A stretch of DNA of 64,000 nt from Hyphomonadaceae bacterium (lineage in GTDB: Bacteria > Pseudomonadota > Alphaproteobacteria > Caulobacterales > Hyphomonadaceae), in contig CBDDIR010000002.1 of NCBI GenBank assembly GCA_965229115.1, positions 32,410 through 96,409 on the forward strand. The letters are read 5' to 3'. The notes beneath the pieces are model-generated. The model ran no database searches, was not told the origin of the DNA, and worked only from the letters and a program-made list of their open reading frames with translations. Of the stretch, positions 1,507-15,663 are shown one piece after another (position 1 is the first letter of the stretch; each line of letters begins with the position of its first letter). A program made the position numbers and the translations under genes.

Positions 1507-1923
1507 TCAGGGTACGGTGTCGACGTCTGTCTGTCTGAACTCATCTGCCGTCGCCAGAATGGGTACGTTATAATATTTGGCGCATGCATAATGCAGGCAG
1601 TCACCGAGATTGAGGCCCCGGCGGCCCGCGCGATAGCGATGCGCGGCGGAAAGAGCGATCCGGGTCGTCGCGTCCGCAGGCGGGAGATCGCGGATTTCGA
1701 TTCCGCGCTCATCGAGGAACTCGATGACGATCGGTTCTACCTCCGCCACGGCGAGGCCGAACTTGTCGGAGCGGGCAAGGCCGAGCACCGCTTCAAGCAC
1801 GGCAACCGGGGATGTGAAGGCGACCTTCGCGGACGCGATCGCATTGGAGACACGCTCCGCTTCCGGCTCGTCGGAGAGGAGCGCTATGATGGCGCAGGCA
1901 TCGACGAACATCAGCTTTCCCAC
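1507..1923 (-). CDS. vapC: Type II toxin VapC (PIN-domain ribonuclease)
   Basis: 138-aa ORF. N-terminal MFVDACAIIALL and C-terminal LNLGDCLHYACAKYYNVPILATADEF are typical PIN/VapC (FitB-like) segments. It overlaps the upstream small ORF by 13 nt. Confidence 0.85.
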   Translation of the reverse strand: MGKLMFVDACAIIALLSDEPEAERVSNAIASAKVAFTSPVAVLEAVLGLARSDKFGLAVAEVEPIVIEFLDERGIEIRDLPPADATTRIALSAAHRYRAGRRGLNLGDCLHYACAKYYNVPILATADEFRQTDVDTVP

Positions 1924-2153
1924 AGTTCGTCGTAGGCTTCGCGCGGAAGCGGCTGTCTCGCAGCGGCATCGAGTTTGACGCCATGTTGTTCGCGGAGCCG
2001 GGCAGCGGTTTGCAGCGGCGTCTCCTCGTGACGGCGGCGTTCGATCGCCTCTTTCATGGCAATCACGATCGCATCAGTAATGCTGACGCCAGCCATATGC
2101 GCGAACTTGCGCGTGAGCGCGTCCGCTTCAGGATTGTTGACGTTGATCGGCAT
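1911..2153 (-). CDS. vapB: Type II antitoxin, VapB/FitA-like
   Basis: 80-aa ORF (MPINVNNPEADALTRKFAHMAGVSITDAIVIAMKEAIERRR...) directly upstream of and overlapping the PIN toxin. This is the canonical antitoxin-toxin order. Confidence 0.7.
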   Translation of the reverse strand: MPINVNNPEADALTRKFAHMAGVSITDAIVIAMKEAIERRRHEETPLQTAARLREQHGVKLDAAARQPLPREAYDELWES

Positions 2154-2298: not shown

Positions 2299-2595
2299 TC
2301 AGGCAGCCTTCCGCTCCGCATTCGGCTGGAGGTCATGAAGATAGGCGACAGCGCGTTGCGCATGTGCGGCCGCCTGGAAGATTGCCCGGCGGTCACCGTC
2401 GAGCAGCTTCAACCACGAGGCCACATAGCTCGCGTGATCGGGCCGCGGCTCCAGCTCGGGCACGATTCCGAGATCGGCGCAGAGGAAACATGCCCCTATG
2501 TCGGCACAAAGCTCTTCGCGCGCGCGATCCGTGCGATCCTTGTGATAGCGGCTCAAATCCCGATTCAGCCGGTGGCTTGCGCCGACCCAGTGAAC
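2299..2595 (-). pseudogene. ardC: ardC antirestriction gene, 3' fragment (severed by insertion)
   Basis: Minus-strand reading ..HWVGASHRLNRDLSRYHKDRTDRAREELCADIGACFLCADLGIVPELEPRPDHASYVASWLKLLDGDRRAIFQAAAHAQRAVAYLHDLQ matches the C-terminal half of ArdC/DUF1738 zincin-like proteins. It has no N-terminus of its own. The matching 5' half lies at 13069-13695. Confidence 0.8.
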
Positions 2596-2651
2596 GTTAT
2601 GCCGATATCGGCATAACACCCATTATGCCGTAAGTCCGATTATGCCGCATG
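2596..2651. repeat. Left terminal repeat region of the RIT element (22-bp perfect palindrome + 35-bp IR)
   Basis: GTTATGCCGATATCGGCATAAC (2596-2617) is a perfect palindrome. CACCCATTATGCCGTAAGTCCGATTATGCCGCATG (2617-2651) is the reverse complement of 13038-13072 except for 2-3 positions. A further inverted 9-mer CGGCATAAT lies at 2698-2706. Confidence 0.75.
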
Positions 2652-2705
2652 GCCGATTTTCAAGGATGAGACTTCTCCTATCGGCCACGCGACGGTTCGG
2701 CATAA

Positions 2706-3698
2706 TCAGAGTGACTCAAGGAATGCGAGCAGTTCGTCGTTGGGTCGATATCGCCCTGGATGAGTTTTCGGGCTGGTGATCTGAGAAAGGGCTTTTTCCT
2801 TCAAGCGCATGTCGGCGTGGATATAAATCTGGGTCGTCTCCACGGATTCATGCCCAAGCCAAAGTGCGATCACAGATTGATCGACCCCGTGATGCAGTAG
2901 CTCCATCGCCGTGCTGTGGCGCAAGGTATGCGGTGTCACTCGTTTGCTTCCGAGGCTCGGACATGCTCGTGAAGCCTTGAGGCAATGTTTACGCACCAAA
3001 TGTTCCAACGCATCACGACTAAGCCGTTCTCCCCGGATTGAGGGGAATACGGGACTGTCACTGTCATGTCGTTTCCCAATCCATGCCTGGATCAGCTTTG
3101 CCGTGTCGCGACGAAGGGGCGTGCTGCGTTCTTTTCGGCCCTTGCCGACACAACGGATGTGGGCGCCAGCGCCGAAGACTATGTCCCTGCAGCGCAAACT
3201 GATGAGTTCGGAAGCGCGCAGCCCGGTCTGAAGCGCAAGTAAGAGCAGGGCATGATCGCGACGCCCCACCCATGTCGTTCGATCTGGTGCCGCCAGAAGC
3301 GCCGCTATCTCCTCTGCGTCGAGGAACGTCACGCTTCGCTTGACGTATCGCTTGCTCGGCATCGAGAGAATACGCTGACAATGGAGAAGCCAGGTCGGAT
3401 CGGCCATTGCGACGTATCGGAAGAATGAGCGGATCGCGGCGAGACGGGTATTGCGCGTTCTTGCCGTGTTACCGCGCGCCGACTCGACGTGGGTCAGGAA
3501 GTCGGCGACAAGATCGGCATCAATATCGTCGATCGTCAGCTTCGTGGGCGGTTTTCCATGCCTTGAGCCAGCGTAACGGACCAGCAGGCGGAAGGTGTCG
3601 CGATAGCCGGCGATGGTGTGTGGGCTTGCCTCCATTTGTGTGCAGAGCCGGTCGGTGAAGAAGTATTGGATGAGCGCGGGGAAGTTTGTCGCTTTCAT
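2706..3698 (-). CDS. Tyrosine recombinase, third gene of the trio
   Basis: The likely start is the internal MKATNFPALIQYFF (ATG 3696-3698), which makes an ATGA overlap with the upstream stop. The catalytic region HTLRHSTAMELLHHGVDQSVIALWLGHESVETTQIYIH shows the R..HxxR..Y signature. Confidence 0.85.
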   Translation of the reverse strand: MKATNFPALIQYFFTDRLCTQMEASPHTIAGYRDTFRLLVRYAGSRHGKPPTKLTIDDIDADLVADFLTHVESARGNTARTRNTRLAAIRSFFRYVAMADPTWLLHCQRILSMPSKRYVKRSVTFLDAEEIAALLAAPDRTTWVGRRDHALLLLALQTGLRASELISLRCRDIVFGAGAHIRCVGKGRKERSTPLRRDTAKLIQAWIGKRHDSDSPVFPSIRGERLSRDALEHLVRKHCLKASRACPSLGSKRVTPHTLRHSTAMELLHHGVDQSVIALWLGHESVETTQIYIHADMRLKEKALSQITSPKTHPGRYRPNDELLAFLESL

Positions 3699-4633
3699 TG
3701 CTCTTTCTCCGCCGAACTCATGATCCGGGCGGAAGCCAATTCCAGCAATTCTGGCACGGCTTCCAGATACCAATAGGTATTGGCGGGGCTTGCGTGACCA
3801 AGCCATGTGGTGAGCTTGATCATTTCGCGCCCGACGTCCTGGCCGGAACGATACCAGTTCAGCATCGTGCGAACCGCAAAGGTATGGCGAAGGTCATGGA
3901 TGCGCGGCCCGCGTCCATGACGCTTTTGGCTTTGTCTCTGCCTCAAACCGATCTGCTGGCAGACCAGCGCGAAGTTATAGCGTGCGCCACAGTCGCCGAG
4001 GCGATGGCCCTCGCACGTGACGAACATCGCTTCTGACCTGCGACCCAACAACCTGTCCCGCTCACGGCCGTAGCGTTCGAGCTGCTGAACGACCGTTCGA
4101 TCCAGCGGCAACAATCGTTCCTTGCCAAGTTTGCCGAAGCGAACACGAAGAACGCCGGTCTCGATATCAAGATCTGCCTGGTCGAGACGCAGGGCCTCGT
4201 TAATCCGAAGCCCTGTCACGGCAATCAGGCCGAAGAGCGTCGAGCAGGTCAACCCGCGCATGCCGTAAACCGAGGGCAACGTTTTGGTACGCTCGACAAT
4301 CGCGAAGATTTCGGCGTCGCTGTAGATGTGTGGATGCACCCGCTGGACATGTGCGGGCACCAAGCCTTGGGGCGGAACCTCGTGTCGCGAATCCATCCCG
4401 TGCAACCAGAGGGCAAATTGACGGGCCACCCGGAAGCGAGCGCCCCGTGTTCCGGCACTGGCGGCGGGAAGGCTCTCCAGCCAGCGCATGATCAATCTGG
4501 TGTCGACATATTCCGCGCCGTCCTTGTCGGCAAAGGTGGTGAAGCGACGCAAGATGCGTTCTTCCGTGCTCAAATCGGCGCCCAGCCGTCGTCTGATGCT
4601 GAGGTAGCGCTGCTGTTCATCGAGAAGGCTCAT
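3695..4633 (-). CDS. Tyrosine recombinase, second gene of the trio
   Basis: The likely start is MSLLDEQQRYL (ATG 4631-4633), overlapping the upstream stop as ATGA. Catalytic motifs are HDLRHTFAVRTML and LTTWLGHASPANTYWYLE. Confidence 0.85.
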   Translation of the reverse strand: MSLLDEQQRYLSIRRRLGADLSTEERILRRFTTFADKDGAEYVDTRLIMRWLESLPAASAGTRGARFRVARQFALWLHGMDSRHEVPPQGLVPAHVQRVHPHIYSDAEIFAIVERTKTLPSVYGMRGLTCSTLFGLIAVTGLRINEALRLDQADLDIETGVLRVRFGKLGKERLLPLDRTVVQQLERYGRERDRLLGRRSEAMFVTCEGHRLGDCGARYNFALVCQQIGLRQRQSQKRHGRGPRIHDLRHTFAVRTMLNWYRSGQDVGREMIKLTTWLGHASPANTYWYLEAVPELLELASARIMSSAEKEQ

Positions 4634-5880
4634 CGTGCAGCCTCCGCAATCGGCCACGGCTGTGCAATGGAGCGCAAACCGTCCGTGTCGAGCTTTGCAT
4701 AAATCATGGTCGTCGCGCGTGATCTGTGCCGCAACAGATCGCCGATCTCATCCAACGATGCCCCGGAGCGAACCAGGTTTGTCGCAAGACTATGACGCAG
4801 GACGTGCGTTCCTACATAGGGCGTCGGTGGCTTCACTCCGGTCGCCGCAAAAGCTTCCCGCAGGATCGAGTTGATGATCTGGCTGTCCTTAAACGGACGG
4901 TTGGGCGCTCGGTGACTGACGAACAGAGTCCGCGTTGTCGTTGAAGTCCGTTCCTCGCGCAAATACGTGCTGATCGCCTCTCCCACGTCTGGCGGGATTG
5001 GCAGCCGATCATGGCGTTGTCCTTTCCCGCGAACCAGAATCTGCCCGGTTCGCCAGTCGATGTCATCAAGCTGAACTGCCATAACCTCGGGTGCTCGCAT
5101 GCCCAGCCTCGCCATCAAGAGCAACATTGCATGGTCGCGGGCGCCCCGCCGCGGATTGGTCGCGACCGATGCCAGAACGGCCTCCACTTCATCGGGCGAC
5201 AGATAGCGCGGAAGTCTCGAGCCCCACGGCTTGTGTACCCTCGGTACGCAGAGTGCGAGGTTTGAGGTGGTGAGTCCTTGGGCGAACAAATACTGGAAGA
5301 AGCAACGCAGATGCGTGGATAGCGTCTTGTCGCGGTAAGGTGTCTTGCGCGCGATAACATGCTCCATGAACGCAACGACGTCGCGGGAGACCAGTGCGCC
5401 GAGATCGAGATCACCATCTCCGAAGCGATGAGCCAAGAAGCGCGTTGCGAACCCCAAAACATGTTTCACGGATCGTGGGCTGAGCCCGCGTTGTCGCAAT
5501 AGATAGATCTCGAGGTTGCCGAGAAGCTCGTGGCGTTCGGCCTCTGCCGCAGTGAGCGGTGGTCGCTCCGCCACGCCGATTTCGATCAGGTACTGGAAGA
5601 ATCGCCTCGCAAGATTGGGAAGCTTGATCTGGGCTTTCGGCGCCATTGGCAATCGCAGTCCCAATTCGAAAGCAAGTTCCGCGGTCAGATCCGACGGTGC
5701 GATGCCCTCGATCTCCATCAACCTGCCAAGACGCCTCAGGTTGTGGCGATAATTTTCCAGTGTTGCCGGCTTGTAGTTCTTGGCGGAGAGACTTTCTTCG
5801 AATGAGCCAATATAGCAATCGAGGCAATTGATCGTTTTGTTTAATGGTTCCATTTGGCGCTCCTCTTGTTGGAGCCACAA
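4630..5880 (-). CDS. Tyrosine recombinase, first and largest gene of the trio
   Basis: 416-aa ORF with an N-terminal SAM-like/core-binding region. The C-terminal HVLRHSLATNLVRSGASLDEIGDLLRHRSRATTMIYAK carries the integrase catalytic signature. Confidence 0.85.
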   Translation of the reverse strand: MWLQQEERQMEPLNKTINCLDCYIGSFEESLSAKNYKPATLENYRHNLRRLGRLMEIEGIAPSDLTAELAFELGLRLPMAPKAQIKLPNLARRFFQYLIEIGVAERPPLTAAEAERHELLGNLEIYLLRQRGLSPRSVKHVLGFATRFLAHRFGDGDLDLGALVSRDVVAFMEHVIARKTPYRDKTLSTHLRCFFQYLFAQGLTTSNLALCVPRVHKPWGSRLPRYLSPDEVEAVLASVATNPRRGARDHAMLLLMARLGMRAPEVMAVQLDDIDWRTGQILVRGKGQRHDRLPIPPDVGEAISTYLREERTSTTTRTLFVSHRAPNRPFKDSQIINSILREAFAATGVKPPTPYVGTHVLRHSLATNLVRSGASLDEIGDLLRHRSRATTMIYAKLDTDGLRSIAQPWPIAEAAR

Positions 5881-5947
5881 ATTTCACCTCAAAACTGCTG
5901 TAATGTAATAGGCCCGCGATAGCGATCCGATAGCCGCGGTCGCGGTA

Positions 5948-5981
5948 TTGACAACCATATTATATCCATTACTCTGGATAT
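5948..5981 (+). promoter_or_regulatory. Candidate arsR promoter with ArsR-type operator dyad
   Basis: TTGACA lies at 5948-5953. The dyad ATATCCA-ttactc-TGGATAT at 5962-5981 abuts the arsR ATG (5982). The short distance suggests a very short or absent leader (inference). Confidence 0.35.
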
Positions 5982-6335
5982 ATGGAAAGCAGCAGCGCGA
6001 TATCGGCCCTCGCGGCCTTGGCACAGAACACCCGACTTGAGACGTTTCGGCTGCTCGTACGGCACGAACCGGATGGCGTTCCTGCAGGGGAACTCGCGCG
6101 ACTAATCGACGTGCCGCAAAATACGATGTCAGCGCACCTGGCTACATTGTTACGCGCCGGGCTTGTGAAGAGTGAGCGACAGAGCCGCTCGATAATCTAC
6201 CGGGCTGACCTTGATGGCCTGCGCGATCTTACCTTGTTTCTGCTTAAGGACTGCTGTGGCGGCTCGACGGAACTCTGCGCCCCGCTCATCGCTCAGCTGA
6301 CTCCCTGTTGCGCTCCGGAGGCGAAGCCGTGCTGA
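5982..6335 (+). CDS. arsR: ArsR/SmtB-family arsenic-responsive repressor (C-terminal Cys type)
   Basis: 117 aa with the wHTH segment LAQNTRLETFRLLV...GELARLIDVPQNTMSAHLATLLRAGLV. It has no ELCVCDL motif. Cys pairs lie in the C-terminal tail (LLKDCCGG...PCCAP), as in AfArsR-type sensors. Confidence 0.85.
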   Translation: MESSSAISALAALAQNTRLETFRLLVRHEPDGVPAGELARLIDVPQNTMSAHLATLLRAGLVKSERQSRSIIYRADLDGLRDLTLFLLKDCCGGSTELCAPLIAQLTPCCAPEAKPC

Positions 6336-6772
6336 GCGGGATCCAACTGAGCGAGATAGCTGGCAGCGATCTGGATCTCCGCGCTACCCTCGTCGAAGCG
6401 GCGTTGCCAACAGACGATATCGAGGATGAAGGACGCACCTTCTTCAGGGCCAGTTCCAATGAAGGCGAGATTTACGGTTTTTCCGGAATTGAGCGCTGTG
6501 CCAGTGACGCTCTTCTGAGGTCGATAGTTGTGCTCCCCTCACATCGCGGCCGAGGCATCGGTCTCGATATCGTTGTGGCGACACTAGGCCGTGCCGGTCT
6601 TGGCAGCGACGTCTATCTCGCGACGACGACTGCGACCGCATTCTTTTCACGCATCGGGTTTGTTGAAGTCGCTCGCGACAGCGTGCCGTCAGCCGTGCTG
6701 GCCACCCGACAGCTTTCCTCAATCTGCCCATCCTCTGCGACGATCATGAAGCTGATCAAGCCGCCGAGCTAA
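6329..6772 (+). CDS. arsN: GNAT N-acetyltransferase, ArsN2-like
   Basis: The segment ALLRSIVVLPSHRGRGIGLDIVVATL...YLATTTATAFFSRIGFVEV is a GNAT acetyl-CoA motif in an ars operon context. The start is uncertain: GTG 6329 is chosen, and the ORF track gives TTG 6308. Confidence 0.7.
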   Translation: MLSGIQLSEIAGSDLDLRATLVEAALPTDDIEDEGRTFFRASSNEGEIYGFSGIERCASDALLRSIVVLPSHRGRGIGLDIVVATLGRAGLGSDVYLATTTATAFFSRIGFVEVARDSVPSAVLATRQLSSICPSSATIMKLIKPPS

Positions 6773-6787
6773 CCACGGACCAGAACC

Positions 6788-7315
6788 ATGACTGACAAGA
6801 CCTACAACGTGCTGTTCCTCTGCACGGGCAATTCCGCTCGCTCTATTCTCGCAGAATCCATCCTTAACAAAGAGGGCGACGGCCGCTTCAGGGCATACTC
6901 CGCTGGTAGCCAGCCAAAGGGTGAGGTCAACCCCCTTGCACTGAAGGAACTAGAGACGCTTGGCTATCCATCGACCGGTCTTTCATCGAAGAGCTGGGAC
7001 GTGTTTGCCGCACCTGGTGCACCGGAGATGGATTTCATCTTTACGGTTTGCGACAGCGCGGCCGGCGAGGCCTGCCCCGTGTGGATCGGCCATCCGATGA
7101 CCGCCCACTGGGGCGTCGAAGATCCAGCCGTGGTCTCCGGCCTCGACATCGACAAGCAACGTGCCTTCGCGCAGGCAGCCCGCTTTCTCAAAAACCGGAT
7201 CCTCGCATTTGTAAACCTGCCGCTCGTCTCCATCGATCGACTGGCGCTGGAGACCAAACTCCGCCAGATCGGCGCGATGGAAGGTTCGACCTCGCCGCAG
7301 GGGAAGTCCGCCTGA
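6788..7315 (+). CDS. arsC: Arsenate reductase, LMW-PTPase (thioredoxin-coupled) type
   Basis: 175 aa with the P-loop LFLCTGNSARSILAE, plus SAGSQP and TVCDSAAGEACP, typical of the LMWP ArsC class. Confidence 0.85.
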   Translation: MTDKTYNVLFLCTGNSARSILAESILNKEGDGRFRAYSAGSQPKGEVNPLALKELETLGYPSTGLSSKSWDVFAAPGAPEMDFIFTVCDSAAGEACPVWIGHPMTAHWGVEDPAVVSGLDIDKQRAFAQAARFLKNRILAFVNLPLVSIDRLALETKLRQIGAMEGSTSPQGKSA

Positions 7316-8373
7316 TGTCAACATTTGAACGATACCTGACTGTCTGGGTCTTCTTTTGCATCGCCGTTGGCGTTGCTCTCGGCCACCTGATGCCCGGCGT
7401 CTTCCAGGTCATCGGTAGCGCCGAGATCGCCAAGGTCAACATCCCCGTTGCGATCCTGATTTGGTTGATGATCATTCCGATGCTGCTGAAGATTGATTTC
7501 CGATCGCTGGCACAGGTCGGGTCGTACTGGCGCGGGATCGGTGTCACCCTGATCATTAACTGGGCGATCAAACCGTTTTCGATGGCTCTCCTGGGATGGC
7601 TGTTCGTTGGCTGGCTATTTAGGCCCTATCTGCCGGCAGACCAGATCGACGCTTATATCGCGGGCCTGATCATCCTTGCCGCGGCGCCCTGCACGGCCAT
7701 GGTCTTCGTCTGGTCGAACCTGACACGTGGCGAGCCGCTGTTCACCCTCTCGCAGGTTGCCTTGAACGACGCGATTATGGTCGTGGCGTTCGCCCCGATC
7801 GTCGGCTTGCTGCTCGGCCTGTCAGCCATCACTGTGCCTTGGGCGACGCTTGCCTTGTCGGTTGCACTCTATATCGTCGTGCCTGTCATCATCGCCCAGG
7901 TGCTGCGAAGCCGCCTGACCGCTGATGGAACCACCCGCGCGCTCGATAGCTTGCTCGCCAGGCTTCAGCCGATGTCGCTTGGCGCATTGCTCGCCACGCT
8001 CGTGCTTCTCTTCGCCTTCCAGGGCGAGCAGATCATCGCCCAACCGGCCGTCATCGCATTGCTGGCCGTGCCGATCCTGATCCAAGTCTATCTGAACTCC
8101 GGTCTTGCCTACCTTCTGAACCGCATGGCAGGCGAGCGCCATTGCGTCGCGGGGCCATCGGCCCTCATCGGCGCCAGCAACTTCTTTGAGCTCGCGGTTG
8201 CCGCCGCCATCAGCCTTTTCGGATTTCAGTCGGGCGCGGCGCTCGCCACCGTCGTCGGCGTCCTGATCGAGGTGCCCGTCATGCTGTCGGTCGTCTGGAT
8301 CGTGAACCGCTCGAAGGGTTGGTACGAGGCATCGCCCGCCGTCGCCCACAACGCTATCACCGAAAGACCCTGA
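7315..8373 (+). CDS. acr3: ACR3-family arsenite efflux permease
   Basis: The true start is MSTFERYLTVWVFFCIAVGVALG (ATG 7315, overlapping the arsC stop as TGATG). It is a multi-span hydrophobic protein typical of Acr3. The 441-aa track ORF carries a spurious Arg-rich N-terminal extension. Confidence 0.9.
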   Translation: MSTFERYLTVWVFFCIAVGVALGHLMPGVFQVIGSAEIAKVNIPVAILIWLMIIPMLLKIDFRSLAQVGSYWRGIGVTLIINWAIKPFSMALLGWLFVGWLFRPYLPADQIDAYIAGLIILAAAPCTAMVFVWSNLTRGEPLFTLSQVALNDAIMVVAFAPIVGLLLGLSAITVPWATLALSVALYIVVPVIIAQVLRSRLTADGTTRALDSLLARLQPMSLGALLATLVLLFAFQGEQIIAQPAVIALLAVPILIQVYLNSGLAYLLNRMAGERHCVAGPSALIGASNFFELAVAAAISLFGFQSGAALATVVGVLIEVPVMLSVVWIVNRSKGWYEASPAVAHNAITERP

Positions 8374-8375
8374 CT

Positions 8376-8801
8376 ATGGACGCTACCATCTACCACAATC
8401 CGGCCTGCGGCACGTCTCGCAACACTCTGGCCCTGATCCGTGCGGCCGGGATCGAACCCACCATCATCGAATACGTGCAGAACCCGCCATCGCGCGAGCA
8501 ACTCTCTACGATAATCGCAGATGCCGGTCTGACGGTCCGCGAAGCGATCCGTGAGAAGGGCACGCCCTATGCGGAACTCGGCCTCGACAATCCGGAGCTG
8601 ACCGATGACCAGTTGCTGGACGCGATGATAGCCACCCCGATCCTGATCAACCGACCACTCGTCGTTACGCCGCTCGGCACCAGGCTGGCCCGCCCTTCGG
8701 AGGTCGTGCTCGACATCCTGCCAGCAGACGCCTTCAAAGGACCGTTCACCAAGGAAGACGGCGAGCAGGTCCTCGACCAGGAAGGAAAGCGCATTGTCTG
8801 A
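8376..8801 (+). CDS. arsC: Arsenate reductase, glutaredoxin-coupled (ArsC/Spx fold) type
   Basis: The start is [22 protein letters not shown] (catalytic Cys in HNPxCGTSRN). The protein is 141 aa. Confidence 0.85.
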
Positions 8802-9504
8802 GACATTTCCCGCACTGCACGACGACCATCTTCAGCCGATTGCGCCAGAATCCCTTCGCCCGGCGTTCTCCACCCACAAGCCACGGATCCTGATCCTCTA
8901 TGGATCGCTCCGGGAAGTGTCGTATAGCCGTCTGCTTGCCTTCGAAGTCCGTCGGCTGCTCGAACGCCTCGGATGCGAGGTGCGGATATTCGATCCTGCG
9001 GGATTGCCGCTCCCGGACGAGGCACCCGTCAGCCATCCCAAGGTGCAGGAACTCCGCGACCTGTCGCAATGGTCGGAGGGCCAGGTCTGGATCAGCCCGG
9101 AGCGCCACGGCGCGATGACAGGAATCATGAAGGCTCAGATCGACTGGATCCCGCTGTCGCTCGGCTCCGTCCGCCCCACCCAGGGCAAGACGCTGGCGGT
9201 GATGGAAGTCTCCGGCGGCAGTCAGTCCTTCAACGCTGTGAACCAGTTGCGCATCCTCGGCCGCTGGATGAGGATGATCACCATCCCCAACCAGAGCAGC
9301 GTCGCGAAGGCGTTTCAGGAATTCGACACCGATGGCCGGATGAAGCCGTCATCCTACTATGACCGCGTCGTCGATGTCTGCGAGGAACTGGTGAAGTTCA
9401 CCATCATGACCCGCGATGCTTCTTCCTACCTCACCGACCGATATAGCGAGCGGAAGGAGGAGGCGGCCGAGCTGGAGAAACGGGTCTCGCTGAAGTCGAT
9501 CTGA
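8794..9504 (+). CDS. arsH: ArsH, NADPH-dependent FMN reductase
   Basis: 236 aa. [18 protein letters not shown] and [21 protein letters not shown] are characteristic ArsH segments. TTG start. Confidence 0.9.
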
Positions 9505-9508
9505 CGGA

Positions 9509-10720
9509 TCAGGCCGTTGCGGTGGCAGGCTGCCGGCAGGAGGCGGCCACCGCGACGAATGCCGCGATGCTGATCGCTCCGAGGCATGCGTTTGCGACGA
9601 GGGCGAAGCTCAGCCCGATATTCTCCATGGCCGCCGCGAACACGAAGGGCGCCCCGGCGCCAACCGCCAGACGGGCGGCCGCCATCTTGCCGGTGATCGC
9701 GCCATATCCGTCCGATCCGAACAGGTAAAGGGGCAGGCTCCCTTGCGCGATGCTGTTGATGCCGGAACCAAGCCCGAGGCAAATGGCGAAGGCGACCGCA
9801 CCCGGCAGCCAGTTGCCCGTCATCAGAAGGATCAGGACGCCGAAGACGATCAGCACAGCCGAGAGCACGGCCAGACCCGGCGGCGACAGGTTCTTCCCAA
9901 AAACCATGTTGATCAGACGGCTCAGAACCTGCGCCGGGCCGAAGAGCGAGCCGATCACGACGGCGGCCGTGCCCAGCCCGATCGATCCCAGCATCGGCAC
10001 CATATGGGCAAGGATCGCGGCGAGCGTGAAGCCAGAGAGCGCGAAGGCAAAGGAGACGATCACCATCGCGCGGCGCCGGGCGTGTGGCGGGATTGCGCCG
10101 ATGACCGTCTCGCGCGGTCGGACCGCCGCGTCGCCTGCCTTCTTTCCGAGGCTTCGGATCCAGAAGTGCAGCGGCATGCAGATGAATAGGTTCAGCGCCG
10201 CAAAGACGAGATAGATCTCCCGCCAGGACAGATAGCCGGTGAGCGTCGCCGAGATCGGCCAGAAGATCGTCGAGGCAAATCCGCCGATCAGCGTCAGATA
10301 GGTGATGCTGCGAGAGGCTGTGCGGGGATCGCTCTCGACCAGCGCCGCGAATGCCGCCTGATACTGGACCATGCCGGACGAGACTTCGAGCAGGATGATG
10401 GCAATGGCGAAGATCGCGATCGAGGGTGACCAGGCGCAAAGGGCGAGCGTAAGTGCGGCAAGGGCAGAGCCGATCGTCATGATCGTGGCTGCGCCGATCC
10501 GGTCCATCTGCTTGCCGATATAGGTCGCCGACAGGCCACCGATGAACAGCGACACGGAGAACACACCAAACACTTCCGCCAGCGACAAGCCGAGATCCGA
10601 CGCCATGCCGGGCGCCAGGATGCTGAAGCTGTAATATAGCGTGCCGTAGCCGATGATCTGCGTCAGGCCGAGAGCCGAGACGAGCCCAGCCGAGATTTTC
10701 GAGCTACGCAACGACGTCAC
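9509..10720 (-). CDS. MFS transporter co-transcribed with arsR (ArsK-like candidate)
   Basis: 403-aa ORF with about 12 hydrophobic spans and a GTG start that overlaps the stop of the upstream arsR by 17 nt. The specific ArsK assignment is inference from context. Confidence 0.75.
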   Translation of the reverse strand: MTSLRSSKISAGLVSALGLTQIIGYGTLYYSFSILAPGMASDLGLSLAEVFGVFSVSLFIGGLSATYIGKQMDRIGAATIMTIGSALAALTLALCAWSPSIAIFAIAIILLEVSSGMVQYQAAFAALVESDPRTASRSITYLTLIGGFASTIFWPISATLTGYLSWREIYLVFAALNLFICMPLHFWIRSLGKKAGDAAVRPRETVIGAIPPHARRRAMVIVSFAFALSGFTLAAILAHMVPMLGSIGLGTAAVVIGSLFGPAQVLSRLINMVFGKNLSPPGLAVLSAVLIVFGVLILLMTGNWLPGAVAFAICLGLGSGINSIAQGSLPLYLFGSDGYGAITGKMAAARLAVGAGAPFVFAAAMENIGLSFALVANACLGAISIAAFVAVAASCRQPATATA

Positions 10721-11063
10721 TCTTGTCGGCCGGGATGCAGCAGTCGTCGGCGCGCTCGCCGTTCTCCCTGATCGTCGGATGACCAGCGCAGCAATCCTCC
10801 ATCAGGAATTTGACGAGATCGGCGAGCGTGTCGTAACCGGCGGTGTAGATGATCGAGCGGGATTCCCTTCGCTGCGAGATCAATCCTGACCGCTCCAGTT
10901 CCTTCAAATGGAACGAGGCATTCGTGGCGGACACGCCCATGCGCTCGGCGATCACGCCTGCGGCCAGTCCTTCAGGCCCGGCCACGACCAACGCTCGGAC
11001 GATGGCAAGGCGCGTCTCCTGAGACAGCGCCGCGAACGATGAAAGGGCTTGACGTTCATCCAT
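10704..11063 (-). CDS. arsR: Second ArsR/SmtB-family repressor (C-terminal Cys type)
   Basis: 119 aa with LSQETRLAIVRALV...IAERMGVSATNASFHLKELERSGLI and C-terminal LMEDCCAG...DDCCIP Cys pairs. Confidence 0.8.
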   Translation of the reverse strand: MDERQALSSFAALSQETRLAIVRALVVAGPEGLAAGVIAERMGVSATNASFHLKELERSGLISQRRESRSIIYTAGYDTLADLVKFLMEDCCAGHPTIRENGERADDCCIPADKSDVVA

Positions 11064-11105
11064 ACTTCAACAATCCTTGAACTATTGGATAGAGGGATAA
11101 CCCAC

Positions 11106-11623
11106 ATGAACGCGATCGACAAGTCAGTTTCGACCGACATCAGTCTCGGCCATCTCCTCGATGTGCTTGCGGTGGCGCCGGATGCCCCGCTCATCTTCAG
11201 TTATGAGGGCCGTCCGGTTCGGGCTGGCTATCACGTCACCGAGGTGAAGGCTGGGCAGTTTTTGGCACTCGACTGCGGTGCGAATCCGGAAGCATGGTCG
11301 GAGATCTTCGTCCAACTGTGGGATATCGATGAAGATAGTCGGACACACATGCCGGCCGGCAAGTTCTCAGCGATTATCCGTAAGGTCGCCGACCATGTGC
11401 GGTTAGAGCCGACGGCAAAACTCACGTTCGAATTCAGCAACGAGAGCGGCCAATGGCCCTCTACTGCGCAGCCGCGCCTCGTTTGATCTCGGGGACATTC
11501 GAGGTCGAGCTTGCCGCTCGGCCCGCGAGTTGCAAACCGCTAAACCGATGGCTGGCTGAGGACAGGGCGGCAGAGACCATAGTCTGCTGCAGTCCTCTGC
11601 AAACATCATGCCGGGTGTCGTAA
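11106..11623 (+). pseudogene. ars-associated DUF6428-like gene, apparently frameshifted
   Basis: MNAIDKSVSTDISLGHLLDVLAVAPDAPLIFSYEGRPVRAGYHVTEVKAG... reads to 11486. From about 11444 another frame continues protein-like (ERPMALYCAAAPRLISGTFEVELAARPASCKPLNRWLAEDRAAETIVCCSP, stop 11621-11623). The shift lies at the GAGAG run 11442-11446. Confidence 0.45.
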
Positions 11624-12802
11624 CGAACGCCGACCGCTGATTGCCAACATCGCTGCACCTAATCCACCAGAGACGATCGAACCGAGCAAAATCCCGATCT
11701 TTACGTGGTCCTGGACGTTCGGATCGTCGAAGGCAAGCAGTCCGATGAACAGCGACATGGTAAAGCCTATGCCGCACAACATTGCCGTCCCCGCCATCTG
11801 GCCCCAGCCTGCCTGCGCCGGAAGCTGTGCTAGACCGAGTTTGACGAGTATCAGCACTATACCGAAGATGCCGACAACCTTGCCGAGGAACAAGCCGACC
11901 GCCACGCCCATCGTCAGTGGTTCGGCAAAGACATCTAGCGTCAATCCCGATAATGACACACCTGCATTCGCGAAGCCGAAAATCGGCACAACGATGAAAG
12001 CGACCGGCTTGTGCAAAGCATGCTCCAGCCGGTGCAGCGGAGACTCTGCAGGTGCCGCTTCCGGCGTTCCGGGTGTAACCTTCAGCGGAATGGTCAATGC
12101 CAGCATCACACCTGCAAGCGTCGCGTGAACGCCTGACGCGAAGACCAGTACCCAGAGCACCGCGCCCAAAACTAGATACGGCCAGAGTGCCGTTACTTTC
12201 ATGCGATTGAAGATGACCAGGTTGCCCAGCACGATACCTGCACCCGCGAGCGCCATCAGGTTGAGGTCGGCAGTGTAGAAGACGGCGATGACAACGACGG
12301 CGCCTAGGTCGTCGATAATTGCCAGTGCCGCCAGAAAGATTTTGAGGGACGCCGGTACGCGGGAACCCAAAAGCGAAATGACTCCGAGCGCGAAGGCGAT
12401 GTCAGTCGCCGTCGGGATAGCCCAGCCACGCAATGCCGTCGGATCGTTCCGGTTGAAGAAGACGTAAATGAGGGCGGGCACGAGCATACCGGCAGCAGCA
12501 CCGGCGCCTGGCAGAATGCGACGGCTCCAGCTGGAAAGCTGTCCATCCAGCATCTCGCGCTTGATCTCCAGGCCGACCAGCAGGAAGAACACCGCCATCA
12601 ACGCGTCGTTGACCCAGTGCTGCAAGCTAAGAGGGCCAATATAGACATGCAGTAAGTGGAAATAGGTTTCGGCCAACGGCGAATTTGCGACGACAATCGC
12701 GATAAACGCTACGGCCATGAGCACCAGGCCACCGGATGCCTCGTTGTCGAGGAACTTGCGCAGAGTTGAGTTTGTGCGGCCCTTTGGAACTGTCGAAGAC
12801 AT
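11606..12802 (-). CDS. nhaA: Na+/H+ antiporter NhaA
   Basis: 398 aa. WVNDALMAVFFLLVGLEIKRE, WAIPTATDIAFALGV and ALAIIDDLGAVVVIA are hallmark NhaA segments. Confidence 0.9.
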   Translation of the reverse strand: MSSTVPKGRTNSTLRKFLDNEASGGLVLMAVAFIAIVVANSPLAETYFHLLHVYIGPLSLQHWVNDALMAVFFLLVGLEIKREMLDGQLSSWSRRILPGAGAAAGMLVPALIYVFFNRNDPTALRGWAIPTATDIAFALGVISLLGSRVPASLKIFLAALAIIDDLGAVVVIAVFYTADLNLMALAGAGIVLGNLVIFNRMKVTALWPYLVLGAVLWVLVFASGVHATLAGVMLALTIPLKVTPGTPEAAPAESPLHRLEHALHKPVAFIVVPIFGFANAGVSLSGLTLDVFAEPLTMGVAVGLFLGKVVGIFGIVLILVKLGLAQLPAQAGWGQMAGTAMLCGIGFTMSLFIGLLAFDDPNVQDHVKIGILLGSIVSGGLGAAMLAISGRRSLRHPA

Positions 12803-13037
12803 GGGTTCACGCTCCCTGTTTGGAAGTTGATCGAAGTCTCCGTCGATTTCGGGGGAACCCGCAGCGCACGCAGCACACGCCTGTCCAGTTTATAACCGTG
12901 CTGGCGGCACGGTTCCAGTAAAACCGGCCAATTCCGTACCGATTTCTCGCCGCTGCGAACGATTTTGGTGATGCTGATGACCAATATTATGCCGATCGGA
13001 CTCAATAACGGCCCCCAGGCAAGCGCCCTTTCCAAGT

Positions 13038-13072
13038 CATGCGGCATAATCCGGCTTACGGCATAATGGGTG
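13038..13072. repeat. Right terminal inverted repeat of the RIT element
   Basis: CATGCGGCATAATCCGGCTTACGGCATAATGGGTG is the reverse complement of 2617-2651 with 2-3 mismatches. An additional ATTATGCCG lies at 12986-12994. Confidence 0.75.
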
Positions 13073-13695
13073 ACCTCATGTCCGAGGACGGCGTAATAAC
13101 TCTCGGCATCCCGGAACGTCTCGAAACCCGGCATCTGAATGCTATCGCTGGATGGCTGATAGAAGGCCTGTGACCCACCATGCCGGATCACCGCGCCCGT
13201 ATTGGCGAAGAAGCGGTCCGCGTACTCGATGCGCCCGAGCGGCTCTGCGCCCGGTTCCGGGCGGTGATAGTAGTGATCCGGAAGCCCCTCGATTTGATCA
13301 CAATTGAACACCGTGTACGCCTTGAGGAACGGTATGTCGCGCTCGACTTCACCGCCGCCGGCATCCTTCTCGGTCTTCGTGAAGCGGCTGGCGTAGACGA
13401 CGGTCGCGCCGCTCTCGCCCTTGCGAACATGGGCGCCGAGTTCGTTCGCCTGGCGCAGCGTCATCCAAGTCGCCGACATGAACCCGCTGGCGATACTCTC
13501 GGACCAGAGCAGGAGGACATTCAGCCCCGTATATGGCTGGCCGTTATGGCGCAGCGGCCGGGTGATCCGGCCGGACATGTTGCCGGCACTCCAGGGCTGC
13601 ACCCACGGGCGCACGCCCTTCTCCAGATCGGCGACAATGCGCTCCGTGATCCGCGCATAGATGTCAATCCTCGCGCTTGCTGATTTCCTGCTCAT
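13069..13695 (-). pseudogene. ardC: ardC antirestriction gene, 5' fragment
   Basis: From ATG 13693-13695: MSRKSASARIDIYARITERIVADLEKGVRPWVQPW...LLWSESIASGF...WMTLRQANELGAHVRKGE...AVLGHEVTH. This is the ssDNA-binding N-domain plus the start of the HExxH motif. After HEVTH the reading frame runs into the element IR and becomes nonsense. Confidence 0.8.
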
Positions 13696-13938
13696 CCTTC
13701 TGACCTCCGTGTGAGGCCGCGCCCATCGCGGCCCCGTCGCGGAGGGTCGATGGCAGGAGCGGTCGGGCGGCATGCGCACCGGAACGGCCGGAACGAAGAG
13801 AAGGACGGCGTAGCCGTTGCGCCTGCCGTCGGCTCCTGCAGGACCGACAGAAGGGACGGGCCGCGATGGCGCCTGTCTCTCGCCCGATTTCTTTCTCTCT
13901 CACCTCTCCTGATGCGACTTCGCCGCGACGTCGAAACA

Positions 13939-13970
13939 TGAAAAGCCGCCCCCGTGAGGAGACGGCTTCT
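13939..13970 (-). terminator. Candidate rho-independent terminator downstream of 14016-14603
   Basis: Read on the minus strand, AAGCCG (13963-13968) and CGGCTT (13943-13948) form a 6-bp stem with a 14-nt loop, followed by TTTCATGTTT. Confidence 0.3.
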
Positions 13971-14015
13971 TCGTGGATACGATGAAGGCGGAGCCGAAGC
14001 CCCGCCAGGTCGGCC

Positions 14016-14603
14016 TCAATCGAAGGCCGACATCTGCGCAGCGGCCGCCTTGCGGTCGAGGGACTGGCCCGGATTATCAACCGGCCGGTCGAAAGGCTTC
14101 CATGCCTCGCCAACGATCTGCTCGTAGGCGGCGACGGCACCTTCGGCGGCCATCCGCAGCGCATGCGCCTGAACGCCCATGTCGGCCGCGAACTCGCGCT
14201 TGCGCTGGGCGGCGCTGTCGTAGCCGACGGGACCGTCAAGATCCTCGTCGCGCGCTTCGGCGGCACCCTTGGCGGTGGCGTCACGCGCCTCGGTGACGGC
14301 GCGGGAGTAGAACTGGCCGGCGCCATGAGCGGATCCGACATAGGCACCAACGATGCGCTGCAGATGGATCTGCATCGCCCGTTCACTTAAGCCCTCCGAG
14401 AGTCCTGTGGCGGTCTCCACGATCAGGCGCTCGTGCATGTCGCGGATGCCGTCGCTGTCGAGAATGGCGGTCCCGAAGCTCTCGGCGATCCGGAGCGCCT
14501 GCGCTTCATCGGGGCATGTGAGGCGGACCATTTCGATGGTGGCGCCCTTGCGGAGCTGGAGAACGCGGGCGGATTGGCGGGACTGGGTTGCGGGCTTTAC
14601 CAT
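14016..14603 (-). CDS. Conserved plasmid/ICE hypothetical protein
   Basis: The ORF has a plausible start at MVKPATQSRQSARVLQLRKG (ATG about 14603). Composition is non-repetitive, Ala/Glu-rich and helical. No motif was recognised. Confidence 0.5.
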   Translation of the reverse strand: MVKPATQSRQSARVLQLRKGATIEMVRLTCPDEAQALRIAESFGTAILDSDGIRDMHERLIVETATGLSEGLSERAMQIHLQRIVGAYVGSAHGAGQFYSRAVTEARDATAKGAAEARDEDLDGPVGYDSAAQRKREFAADMGVQAHALRMAAEGAVAAYEQIVGEAWKPFDRPVDNPGQSLDRKAAAAQMSAFD

Positions 14604-15130
14604 GATGGTTTCCTTTTCGGTTTCCCCGAAGCGGTTCGGCCCCTTGGCCGGTCTGCCCTTCGGTGCGGTCGAAGGGAACCGGCGCAAGCCGGGCGTTTCA
14701 GGGTCCGGTCAGGCCAGATCGAGCGGAGCCGGTGCGCGGGCAAGCGGGTCTTTGAGACCTGCGAGGCCCGCGTTCCTGCTCTGCGACAAGCGGCATGACC
14801 GGCCGCCCCGCGGCGCGACAGCGGCCTTGAAACGACCGGCAGCCGGTTCAGACCGCAACGAAACCGAAGGGCAGATCGGCAAAGGGATCGACATCGGATG
14901 CCAGAGCCGAAGAGGAAACCAGGCAAGGCGCTCGCCACACCAATTCCTATCTGCCGAAAGAGCTTCGCTCACCAGAGCCGGAATGCTCTAACGTCCACCT
15001 GATGTCCGCTGGTCTGCGAGGCGCTCTCGATGGGAAACCGGCGGCGGTTTGCTCTCGGCGGCTTTCCGCGATAGATGCGCTCCTGACATGCGGGGCCATT
15101 GCGAGGTCTCCCACGGAAGGGGCACAACAG

Positions 15131-15438
15131 ATGAGCGACCAGAGCAACGACGATTACGTCTATGACGAAGCAAGCGGGGAATGGCGGCCGGCCTCCGAAC
15201 TAGCTGCGGAGAAGGCGAAGGCAGCCGAAGTCCGGGATGCCTCCGGCAATATTCTCGCCGACGGCGACTCCGTAGTGCTGATCAAGGATCTGAAGGTCAA
15301 AGGGGCGCCGGCCAGACACTGAAGCAGGGCACCGTCATCAGGTCGATCCGGCTCACCGATAATCCGGAAGAGATCGATTGCCGCCACGACGCGATCAAGG
15401 GGCTGGTCCTGCGCACGGAATTCGTGCGCAAGCGCTGA
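15131..15438 (+). pseudogene. PhnA-like small protein, frameshifted
   Basis: MSDQSNDDYVYDEASGEWRPASELAAEKAKAAEVRDASGNILADGDSVVLIKDLKVKG stops after a shift. The next frame continues AGQTLKQGTVIRSIRLTDNPEEIDCRHDAIKGLVLRTEFVRKR, the PhnA C-terminal domain. The junction is at the GGGG run 15302-15305. Confidence 0.6.
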
Positions 15439-15447
15439 CGGGATGCG

Positions 15448-15663
15448 CTACCGTTTGGGCAAGCGGTAACGATCAAGCCAGGTGGGGCCGTGCGTGTTGC
15501 GAAGTCGGCGTAATATCCCGACATCGTCATGGGGCGCTTCGCCCATCCAGGCGTTGTTCAGGATGCGCTTCCACGAGCGGCCGTGTCTGGCGGCATAATC
15601 CTGAAGGGCATTCACCTCTTCCTCGGTCAGAGGTGGAAGCGGCTCGGCGTCGAAGCGCCTCAT
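15448..15663 (-). CDS. Hypothetical small protein (71 aa)
   Basis: The ORF MRRFDAEPLPPLTEEEVNALQDYAARHGRSWKRILNNAWMGE... overlaps the upstream ORF stop by 4 nt (translational coupling). Confidence 0.45.
   Translation of the reverse strand: MRRFDAEPLPPLTEEEVNALQDYAARHGRSWKRILNNAWMGEAPHDDVGILRRLRNTHGPTWLDRYRLPKR

Follow-up and report, generated by a model that had tools for sequence, protein, structure and literature searches.

The window analysed here, a stretch of 64,000 nucleotides from a Hyphomonadaceae bacterium, contains an ardC gene in two parts on the minus strand. The N part lies at 13073..13692 (Pfam ArdcN, 6.4e-41; MPTase-PolyVal profile positions 2-57), in an ORF (12709-13779) that runs on into the inserted DNA as far as 12709. 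The 3' half, encoding the C-terminal zincin metallopeptidase part, resumes as (H)WVGASHRLNRD at 2299..2590 (MPTase-PolyVal profile positions 52-126) and is colinear with intact Shinella ardC. Two Shinella plasmids carry an uninterrupted ardC with 99.7% identity to the joined flanks and with synteny on both sides. Comparison of the joined flanks with this intact gene defines 2593-13068 as a clean insertion of 10,476 bp, placed to within ±2 bp since only a TG dinucleotide is common to both junctions. A preliminary description of this DNA had put the insertion within the metalloprotease motif of ardC and had proposed comparing the joined flanks with related plasmids; the Shinella gene bears out this position and fixes the junctions, and both ardC halves match that one gene rather than different paralogues. 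The antirestriction gene had also been described as inactivated. It is physically split inside HExxH, but the antirestriction function of R388 ArdC does not need protease activity (PMC7213743) and here the insertion leaves the N-terminal ssDNA-binding ORF intact; loss of ardC function through the insertion is uncertain.

Three ORFs with Phage_integrase (PF00589) domains occupy the left part of the insertion on the minus strand: ritC (2706..3698, 330 aa; 1.8e-38, with a SAM-like N domain), ritB (3695..4633, 312 aa; 2.8e-16), and ritA (4630..5853, 407 aa; 4.4e-29 over residues 226-398). As already described, they overlap by ATGA, at 3695-3698 and 4630-4633, so that ritB has such an overlap on each side. 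A long N-terminal region of 225 residues precedes the catalytic domain of RitA and about 33 residues follow that of RitC; RitA, RitB, and RitC are known as separate subfamilies, RitA with two core-binding domains and RitC with an extra C-terminal helix (PMC8138268). The lengths in the window would be compatible with these subfamilies. NCBIfam profiles gave only Xer-like matches below the cut-off for these proteins. Each retains GxRxxE, HxxRH, and the Tyr residue, and judged by these catalytic motifs all three recombinases look active. A protein identical to RitC of the window was found in 164 blocks of a public collection. Directly 5' of ritA, at the inner edge of the cargo slot, lies a hairpin, GCTCCAACAAGAGGAGC (5859..5875, minus strand), which is kept in relatives with and without cargo; the GGAG inside it is likely a ribosome-binding site.

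The 7.1-kb cargo comprises arsR-arsN2-arsC-acr3-arsC-arsH, arsR-arsK, a DUF6428 gene, and nhaA. Pfam and NCBIfam profiles confirm the genes of the preliminary description and identify the MFS gene as arsK. The operon at 5982..9504 (plus strand) encodes ArsR, ArsN2 (136 bits, cut-off 125), an LMWP-type ArsC, ACR3 (368 bits, cut-off 283), a glutaredoxin-type ArsC, and ArsH; it is 85-89% identical to plasmid ars clusters of Rhizobium and Agrobacterium, the matches stopping short of the rit genes. It is followed by arsK, for an MFS arsenite efflux transporter (9509-10720, minus strand; NCBIfam MFS_ArsK, 595.6 bits, cut-off 400), arsR2 (10704-11063, minus strand; ArsR family profile), and the gene for the DUF6428 protein (11049..11486, plus strand; PF20001, 6.4e-19). 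The Na+/H+ antiporter gene nhaA (11606..12802, minus strand; Pfam 2.1e-143, NCBIfam NhaA) forms a module apart from the ars block, and its best DNA match (85%) lies on plasmid p2 of A. tumefaciens F2, where it is unlinked to ars genes. This ars/nhaA cargo was found in none of the related RIT (recombinase-in-trio) elements at 80 genome loci.

Element ends and the ardC target

Inverted repeat arms of 35 nt, 94% complementary, lie at 2617-2651 and 13038-13072, where the preliminary description had placed 35-bp repeats. Their outer 6 nt do not belong to the element, those of the right arm (13067-13072) being the native ardC hexamer, and the element-borne repeat is 29 bp. Exactly two copies of its 29-nt core, TTATGCCGTAAGNNNGATTATGCCGCATG, exist in the 64 kb, at 2623-2651 on the plus and 13038-13066 on the minus strand (0 in 100 shuffles). 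A third repeat copy, sought throughout the window, was not found, in agreement with the earlier remark that no copy separates the recombinases from the cargo. The octamer TTATGCCG is present in 11 copies in the window (1.54 expected), 8 of them at the two element ends.

The two ends are asymmetric, a feature that the preliminary description had missed, as it had the target specificity. On the C-half side, the junction hexamer (2591..2596; TGAACG on the plus strand, CGTTCA in the ardC sense) is imported, the empty site having CACCCA there and sharing only TG/CA with it. A perfect 20-bp palindrome, TTATGCCGATATCGGCATAA, follows at 2597..2616 and is built from two copies of the end motif in inverted orientation, with ATAT between them. 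Between it and the ritC-side repeat, an internal hexamer spacer (2617..2622, CACCCA on the plus strand) forms with the neighbouring motifs a core-like site, CGGCATAA-N6-TTATGCCG. The ritC-side end module (2623..2705, plus strand) contains the 29-bp repeat with two direct TTATGCCG copies, a dyad region, and a third, inverted motif (2698-2705), an architecture kept in relatives. The ritA-side (cargo-side) end module (12987..13066, minus strand) has an inverted motif at 12987-12994 and the other repeat. It abuts the native target hexamer of the N-half junction (13067..13072; TGGGTG on the plus strand, CACCCA in sense), which is the same in the empty site and corresponds to the last Val base, the Thr codon, and the CA of the second His of HEVTH. 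The three 6-bp TGNNNN/NNNNCA spacers are likely crossover sites. The empty-site comparison reveals no target duplication: the N-side junction has the native CACCCA and the C-side junction the foreign CGTTCA. The rule that the N side stays native while the C side receives an imported hexamer has one verified empty site as its basis; close empty sites were sought for the other insertion contexts of the element, and none was found.

Some 60 related RITs, representing over 40 genera, occupy the same ardC codon position, HExxH-W, and searches with the two ArdC halves of the window (tblastn) placed nearly every related RIT at the same residue. CAYGAR is in register at 49 of the 53 distinct plain-side flanks, which encode 19 different HExx tetrapeptides, and 52 of 53 palindrome-side hexamers end in CA, the next codon being W or A in nearly all cases and F in one. 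In related plasmids, ardC is thus split at this very codon by elements of this kind, a pattern of site specificity and not of unrelated events. All 46 relatives with both ends typed have the palindrome on one end and the other end plain. The palindrome is ritC-side at 23 loci and ritA-side at 23, and wherever its flank is ardC, that flank is the C-half side; an N-half flank with a palindrome was never seen. Because loci were selected by RitC similarity, palindrome-only footprints in ardC could have been missed.

The hexamers of the relatives follow TGNNNN/NNNNCA and resemble ardC codon fragments, with CA as the only common part. Those of locus L091 are exactly the ones predicted for a donor like L093 integrating via the other core. 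GACCCA is frequent because HELTH is a common ArdC motif, so that some hexamer recurrences are coincidental. Bookkeeping of hexamers is in general flexible enough to accommodate many patterns.

Movement as a unit and kinship with known elements

At least four further ardC genes contain, in one orientation or the other, a 10.45-kb element 99.96-100% identical to that of the window. Seven loci (L087-L092 and L094) match window positions 2618-13068 at this level, and they vary at their junctions both in the flanking sequence and in orientation (contexts A, A', B, C, and D). The surrounding ardC backbones are only 76-78% identical to that of the window; homology between copies ends exactly at the element ends, the flanks diverging from the first base beyond the hexamers. 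Since element and cargo recur nearly unchanged in other ardC genes and in both orientations, the recombinases, the 7.1-kb cargo, and the end modules move as a unit. The preliminary description had suggested a composite resistance transposon. Joint movement of the RIT and its cargo holds, but the element is not composite in the IS sense: an IS-flanked composite transposon was rejected given a single rit trio and the absence of any repeat copy or ardC fragment from its interior. The window element is a unit transposon with passenger genes.

Cargo is not exceptional in the ardC RIT clade. About half of the related RITs carry 0.9-3 kb of other genes, including those for chromate, mercury, and sulfate permease, at the internal position that the window cargo occupies. 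The position of the slot is constant over at least 12 cargo classes, with the ritA-side end module and the hairpin of ritA as its borders in the relatives examined; the window element is the largest among those with both ends placed. Copies of a 5,917-bp chromate-resistance RIT from Pelagibacterium, Paracoccus, Ferrovibrio, and Glycocaulis share 99.95-99.98% identity. Distinct ardC genes host three of the four copies, in both orientations, and the fourth (L005) comes as an element-sized contig lacking a typed flank. We conclude that this chromate-resistance RIT spread recently.

The RIT archetype is said to be Rmet_1271-1273 of Cupriavidus metallidurans CH34, reportedly treated by Van Houdt in 2009 and 2012 and by Ricker in 2013. 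The window element resembles RITs in its three adjacent, same-strand, overlapping recombinase genes in the order A-B-C (407/312/330 aa against about 410/315/330 aa, all with the catalytic Arg-His-Arg-Tyr; PMC10214605), in their short overlaps (ATGA here, 4-8 bp in RITs), and in its 29-bp terminal inverted repeat (35 with hexamers, against 28-34 bp); a palindrome that overlaps one end of a RIT was already pointed out in 2012 (PMC3414803). The RITs described so far measure about 3.3-3.5 kb and are cargo-free, whereas the window element measures 10.5 kb with its 7.1-kb cargo. The compact cargo-free size is a descriptive habit of the family and not a defining mechanism. A 2023 comparison lists RIT target specificity as not tested and movement as never reproduced (PMC10214605); the window clade differs in having a defined target, the ardC HExxH codons, and crossover hexamers, and in that the palindrome side is set by the target and not by the element.

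Tn554, from Firmicutes, lacks terminal inverted repeats and inserts at att554 in a single orientation, and we know of no palindromic extra site described for it. It shares with the window element the use of several tyrosine recombinases, site-specific insertion without target duplication, and the carrying of a 6-bp donor junction to one side (PMC10214605), the window likewise having one native and one foreign hexamer. In contrast, its tnpA-tnpB-tnpC encode two recombinases and a non-recombinase, and the window has three recombinases and clear inverted repeats. Membership in the Tn554 family was therefore rejected, the resemblance being in insertion mode only. SE and GInt elements are also multi-recombinase integrative elements and bring along genes for resistance or virulence; a circular form exists for both, and SEs also carry 6-bp donor-flank sequence (PMC10214605; PMC5385486). 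They differ in having four conserved genes, including the non-recombinase Tfp/GinC and Srap/GinD, in occurring in Gamma- and Betaproteobacteria at other targets without inverted-repeat ends, and in that the Rit proteins are separate subfamilies (PMC8138268). The ORF list and the Pfam and NCBIfam scans of the window element, which included no profile for Tfp, GinC, Srap, or GinD, gave only the three rit genes and the named cargo, and on this gene content SE/GInt membership was rejected. Tn916 and CTnDOT integrate by tyrosine recombination over a 6-7 bp overlap that needs no match, leaving non-identical junctions; these large, conjugative elements encode a single integrase plus Xis and have a loose target preference.

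Proposed circular form and integration

We consider it very probable that the insertion is a 10,476-bp cargo-bearing RIT transposon of a clade site-specific for plasmid or ICE ardC HExxH-W DNA, with two-core circle integration as its putative mode, and we infer that integration proceeds via a circular form with two equivalent core sites. The Rit recombinases would bind the TTATGCCG motifs, and excision would join both ends into a circle with the attachment region end, 6 bp, palindrome, 6 bp, end. Such a region would provide two equivalent classical core sites with 8-bp inverted arms and a 6-bp spacer, either of which could recombine with the ardC site over a mismatch-tolerant 6-bp overlap, as in Tn554, SE elements, or Tn916. 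Both orientations would then be equally frequent, the palindrome would lie constantly on one target side, and hexamers would pass from the previous site to the next. Cargo would occupy the sole free slot, from the ritA-side end module to the ribosome-binding hairpin of ritA.

No experiment has demonstrated excision, a circle, or integration for any RIT (PMC10214605). The end-N6-palindrome-N6-end junction is present in six metagenome contigs. One of them (3,527 nt) has a 99-nt terminal overlap giving a 3,428-bp circular path with ritABC, two distinct ends, and no ardC; this contig stems from a distant relative (RitC 60% identical) and could represent a head-to-tail tandem instead of a free circle. 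Another joins two distinct ends beside merR-merT-merP. The remaining four have an identical end on both sides and perfectly palindromic hexamers; fold-backs made by the assembler may explain them, as may recombination of palindrome with palindrome.

It is unlikely, though conceivable, that the mobile unit extends only up to the two 29-bp repeats, the palindrome being created on the C side of the target at integration, for example by hairpin formation and repair at one cleaved end of the target, and the orientations arising by later in-place inversion between the inverted repeats. To our knowledge, hairpins on target DNA are not known for Xer/integrase-type tyrosine recombinases, which counts against this scheme. 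Hairpin intermediates have been proposed for RITs by Nielsen et al. (PMC5737581), and the palindrome arms often span both hexamers, with a perfect 32-nt palindrome at 12 of 46 loci, as expected just after hairpin copying. The two element ends carry core-like sites in inverted repeat, with the same spacer in 12 loci, which would favour inversion, but no two loci share their flanks and differ in orientation. Moreover, in L096 and L098 the ends joined through the palindrome are two different ones and the hexamers are not palindromic, as expected if the palindrome travels with the element.

Still less probable is that the 20-bp palindrome is an independent miniature insertion that some ardC genes had acquired beforehand, and that it is where the RIT really lands, inserting beside it because it is built from Rit-binding motifs. 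Two Rit end motifs do form the palindrome, so the recombinases would be attracted, and a solo copy exists in L023; however, the latter lies between two inverted ardC C-halves, indicating rearrangement and not simple insertion. The 99.7%-identical empty site has no palindrome, nor has any of the seven intact ardC paralogues in the fetched loci, 70 of 71 palindromes adjoin an element end, and its placement at a single codon position across about 50 different ardC genes would still need explaining. We give hardly any credence to the idea that the ars/nhaA cargo entered a resident RIT in place and that the 10.5-kb structure spread with the plasmid or by ardC homologous recombination rather than by Rit transposition. 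Its mosaic make-up, two modules with different nearest relatives, and its absence from the related RITs among the 80 genome loci fit in-place entry, but plasmid-only spread is at odds with copy homology that stops exactly at the element ends, with flanks that differ just beyond the hexamers, and with both orientations on backbones 76-78% identical.

RIT elements received their name in 2009 and occur commonly in bacterial genomes. New for RITs are an exact target with a verified empty site, a probable recombinase-binding motif and 6-bp crossover region recognised from sequence, and a predicted junction that one circular contig matches. Arsenic resistance is a natural selectable marker on a recently moved element; with target, motif, and junction, it makes a transposition assay straightforward to set up. 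We are evenly divided on a broader reading: RITs would be site-specific, cargo-carrying integrative elements rather than random transposons, with a circular form and a long palindromic attachment region in which two equivalent core sites surround the central 20-bp palindrome, each clade specialised on a single conserved gene found on conjugative plasmids or ICEs (the ardC HExxH codons here, another small conserved ORF in a sister clade), tolerating mismatched 6-bp overlaps and passing hexamers from site to site. If true, RITs would be a widespread route for ars, chr, and mer genes onto conjugative plasmids across Alphaproteobacteria. RITs carry arsenic, chromate, and mercury resistance, among other cargo, and place it in ardC, a gene widespread on conjugative plasmids, which bears on the spread of resistance in soil and plant-associated bacteria.

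The ars-carrying RIT and its insertion in ardC

By its gene content and its ends, the window element is a recombinase-in-trio (RIT) element. Three tyrosine recombinase genes on the minus strand (2706-3698, 3695-4633, and 4630-5853) are joined by ATGA overlaps; all three products keep GxRxxE, HxxRH, and the catalytic Tyr, and each Rit protein is consistent with the features published for its subfamily. The cargo comprises arsR, arsN2, an LMWP-type arsC, acr3, a glutaredoxin-type arsC, and arsH, then arsK with a second arsR (opposite strand), a DUF6428 gene, and nhaA. The repeat search gave a single outstanding inverted repeat (2617-2651 / 13038-13072; 35 nt, 94% complementary), whose 29-nt core has exactly two copies in the 64-kb window and none in 100 shuffles; the octamer TTATGCCG has 11 copies (1.5 expected), 8 of them at the two element ends. 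The preliminary description had correctly placed the repeats, the recombinase trio, the cargo, and the split ardC, and had rightly seen no repeat copy between recombinases and cargo, the core being confined to the ends. The 35-bp repeat exists as claimed, but its outer 6 nt are junction hexamers, the right one being native ardC sequence. Inside the window element there is neither an internal third repeat nor an ardC fragment that would mark a fusion of two elements.

An asymmetry of the ends had been overlooked. A perfect 20-bp palindrome, TTATGCCGATATCGGCATAA (2597-2616), composed of two inverted copies of the end motif, separates the left repeat from the flank outside it. In the ardC sense the order is N flank - hexamer - [motif ... 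element ... motif] - hexamer - palindrome - hexamer - C flank, with all hexamers of the form TGNNNN, or NNNNCA on the other strand, and a third, inverted motif is found ~75 nt inward in each end module. In some cargo-bearing relatives (L013, L016, and L017), 110-120 nt of the ritC-side end, taking in the last 25-30 nt of ritC, recur in inverted form as the ritA-side end module, a hint that cargo-side ends can be formed anew when the ritC end is duplicated.

Five nucleotides upstream of the ritA start, a hairpin conserved in all relatives (GCTCCAACAACATGGAGC, 5859-5875, of the form GCTCCAACA(A/C)(G/A)(A/T)GGAGC) sequesters the ritA ribosome-binding site GGAG and may control translation of the recombinase operon. 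Transcription of ritA and arsR is divergent, the two genes being 128 nt apart, and the spacer (5876-5981) holds an AT-rich dyad, CCATATATCC...GGATATAATATGG, resembling an ArsR operator; one might speculate from this resemblance that arsenic influences rit expression.

A single uninterrupted ardC matching the joined flanks at 99.7% identity was found on plasmids of Shinella sp. WSC3-e and WSD5-1. One of these plasmids aligns to the window in two colinear blocks, 715-2592 (96.0%) and 13067-19703 (94.5%), which overlap by the dinucleotide TG only, so the insertion is 10,476 bp long (2593-13068 ± 2 bp), in agreement with the coordinates first proposed. The empty site reads GAGGT-CACCCA-CTGGGTC in the ardC sense; the N-side junction in the window retains the native CACCCA and the C-side hexamer is CGTTCA, indicating that there is no target duplication and that the hexamer at one of the junctions is foreign. 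The ars-RIT (the window element and its near-identical copies) occupies four further contexts, for which the best PLSDB matches were only 85-91% identical, too distant for the native hexamer to be called. Adjoining the ardC 3' end, the window (1507-2153) encodes a VapB-like antitoxin (PSK_trans_fac, 1911-2153) and, after it, an ORF at 1507-1923; a VapBC pair is annotated at the matching place in the Shinella relative, with two group II introns just beyond.

The insertion splits ardC in its zincin motif, leaving ArdcN and MPTase-PolyVal profile positions 2-57 in the N part and positions 52-126 in the C part. Since the cut falls inside HExxH, the protease active site is destroyed, and to this extent ardC is inactivated as had been proposed. 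Loss of antirestriction is not established, given that a protease-dead mutant of R388 ArdC still gives antirestriction, credited by its authors to DNA binding (PMC7213743), and that the window retains an intact ORF for the N-terminal ssDNA-binding part, which continues into the element. The insertion site may be tolerated because the N domain is spared.

Movement of recombinases and cargo as a unit

An exact-sequence look-up of the window RitC returned 164 blocks of public assemblies. Contigs L087-L092 and L094 match window 2618-13068 at 99.96-100%, but their backbone is only 76-78% identical or unrelated, and homology ends at the element ends. Judged by its junctions, the ars-RIT occupies at least five ardC contexts: three (the window, L086/L095, and L093) have the palindrome on the ritC side, and two (L088/L089/L092 and L091) have it on the nhaA side. 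Gain of the cargo in place, with purely vertical or homologous spread thereafter, is ruled out by these near-identical copies in differing ardC contexts, whose homology stops at the ends. The earlier finding is thus real, and its interpretation, that RIT and cargo moved together, is directly supported.

A chromate-resistance RIT of 5,917 bp recurs at 99.95-99.98% identity in four genera from different orders; three of its four copies are inserted in ardC genes distinct from one another, and both orientations are represented. Many contigs are exactly one element long, as expected of a multicopy repeat. In one sample, an IS6/IS26-family transposase gene (DDE_Tnp_IS240; L090 84-836) cuts the ars-RIT at window 6527, and most of the cargo is gone. 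Two copies that are 99% identical (L086 and L095) share a ~30-bp alignment break in ritA, at window 5440-5471, and are possibly decaying; in L086 ritA is missing from the gene calls and the element is followed by another integrase gene.

One target and one cargo slot

BLAST against plasmids returned related RITs (76-83% nucleotide identity) with different small cargos in the ardC of Rhizobium, Agrobacterium vitis, and Bradyrhizobium plasmids; the A. vitis pTi flanks are only 81% identical to pTiS4, which provides no close empty site. A RitC scan with one genome per species gave 80 loci from more than 40 genera (RitC 75-91% identical). When both window ArdC halves were used in tblastn, nearly every element with enough flank proved to be inserted at the same residue, in ArdC flanks only ~35-80% identical to those of the window. 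On the plain side, which lacks the palindrome, CAYGAR is in register in 49 of 53 distinct flanks, covering 19 different HExx tetrapeptides; 52 of 53 palindrome-side hexamers have CA as their last two bases, and the codon that comes next is nearly always one for Trp or Ala. The ritC and ritA sides bear the palindrome equally often, in 23 loci each, and in ardC-flanked elements it is always next to the C half, never the N half.

The sole palindrome-less locus, L002 (pTi_Tun201), was considered as an ancestral simple form and rejected, as its 99.98%-identical sister L008 has the palindrome; L002 has apparently lost 26 nt by deletion between direct CGGCATAATG repeats. A 3.3-kb RIT (L035 595 and 3933) has a different ardC N-half on each side and no palindrome, which points to recombination of two copies or mis-assembly of the MAG contig.

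Repeat-to-repeat length is 3.34 kb in ~25 loci and larger by 0.9-3.1 kb in at least 12 other size classes, the window element being the largest among elements with both ends placed. In all 18 cargo-bearing elements examined, the cargo slot lies between the ritA-side third motif and the GCTCCAACAACATGGAGC hairpin. The cargo of relatives includes ChrA with ChrB, MerR-MerT-MerP, a SulP permease, an alkene reductase with TetR, a DAHP/KDO8P-type synthase, a Trp/Tyr-tRNA synthetase, a hydrolase, a LysR regulator, NlpC/P60, and nested IS transposases. Other ars-carrying RITs were absent from the 80 genome loci, copies surfacing only in the identical-protein look-up. Three loci with no second repeat within 10 kb (L009, L014, and L015) were rejected as giant-cargo elements, being rearranged or truncated copies.

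A possible circular intermediate

We propose that the two ends would be joined through the palindrome, giving end - N6 - palindrome - N6 - end. Such a junction would hold two classical tyrosine-recombinase-type sites (8-bp inverted arms, 6-bp spacer); for the window element, it is predicted to run from the nhaA-side end through the palindrome to the ritC-side end, as CGGCATAA-N6-TTATGCCGATATCGGCATAA-N6-TTATGCCG. Either core could recombine with ardC, which would yield the 1:1 orientations, the fixed palindrome side, and the movement of hexamers between sites without post-integration inversion.

The junction was absent from 95 loci and present in six metagenome contigs. Contig L098 (3,527 nt) has a 99-nt terminal direct repeat, giving a 3,428-bp circular path that carries ritA, ritB, and ritC and lacks ardC; its two ends can be told apart, and its junction reads TGCCTC-palindrome-TCGTCA. 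In L096, two different ends are joined beside a mer cargo. In the other four, a single kind of end stands on either side of the palindrome and the hexamers are palindromic; these contigs are possible fold-back artefacts. They (L097 and L099-L101) may also be the reciprocal product of a recombination of the L023 type: at L023 3658, a palindrome that, alone among all copies, adjoins no element end lies between two ardC C-half flanks in inverted orientation, an arrangement that resembles the outcome of recombination between the palindromes of two insertions. Since the L098 circle could be a tandem, and RIT movement, like target specificity, is listed as untested in PMC10214605, we only infer the two-core circle mechanism, whose details are about equally likely to be right or wrong.

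Both junctions are present in 46 loci: the hexamers of the N and C sides are equal, as in a duplication, in 14, the two palindrome-flanking hexamers are reverse-complementary in 12, the two adjoining the element ends are identical in 12, and none of these relations holds in 18. The hexamers resemble ardC fragments (codon third base, a Thr/Gly/Val/Ser-type codon, then CA), and in the ars-RIT family the same rare hexamers recur at different positions. The palindrome is flanked by TGGGTC and AACGCA in L093, and by TGCGTT and GACCCA in L091, which has the opposite orientation; the latter pair is exactly that expected if an L093-like copy had circularised and re-integrated via the other core. This match is suggestive, not conclusive, because HELTH is a frequent ArdC motif and GACCCA is therefore frequent. 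L088/L089 and L092 share junction-proximal ardC flanks and orientation but differ in palindrome hexamers (TGGGTT/TGTACA vs TGCGTT/GACGCA), reflecting either independent insertions into one allele or hexamer turnover in place.

The window element differs from the published RIT description in its size and cargo, its defined target, and its target-fixed palindrome. It resembles Tn554 and the SE elements in junction behaviour (6-bp carry-over, no duplication) and Tn916-type elements in heterology tolerance, but belongs to none of these families; nor, in the IS sense, is it a composite transposon. The literature searched, which did not extend to the possibly overlapping Ricker et al. 2013 (Plasmid 70:226), held no paper tying RITs to ardC or cargo. 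A sister RIT clade (L070-L072, L079-L083; e.g. L082 7657 and 11076), with RitA ~55% identical, has hexamers bounded by TA and a variant of the palindrome, TTATGCCGAATTCGGCATAA, likewise confined to one side. The L082 element interrupts a small conserved ORF, MADYFTHFSCLLDVG...LWGFQY|ALTCSRPRLDAF..., which Pfam assigns to no family, and other members have similar flanks. Different RIT clades seem dedicated to different conserved genes.

The value of the ars-RIT lies less in its arsenic genes than in the family-wide view that it opens on the mechanism of a transposon class named in 2009, and its selectable marker, exact target, and predicted intermediate make it an unusually good experimental handle.
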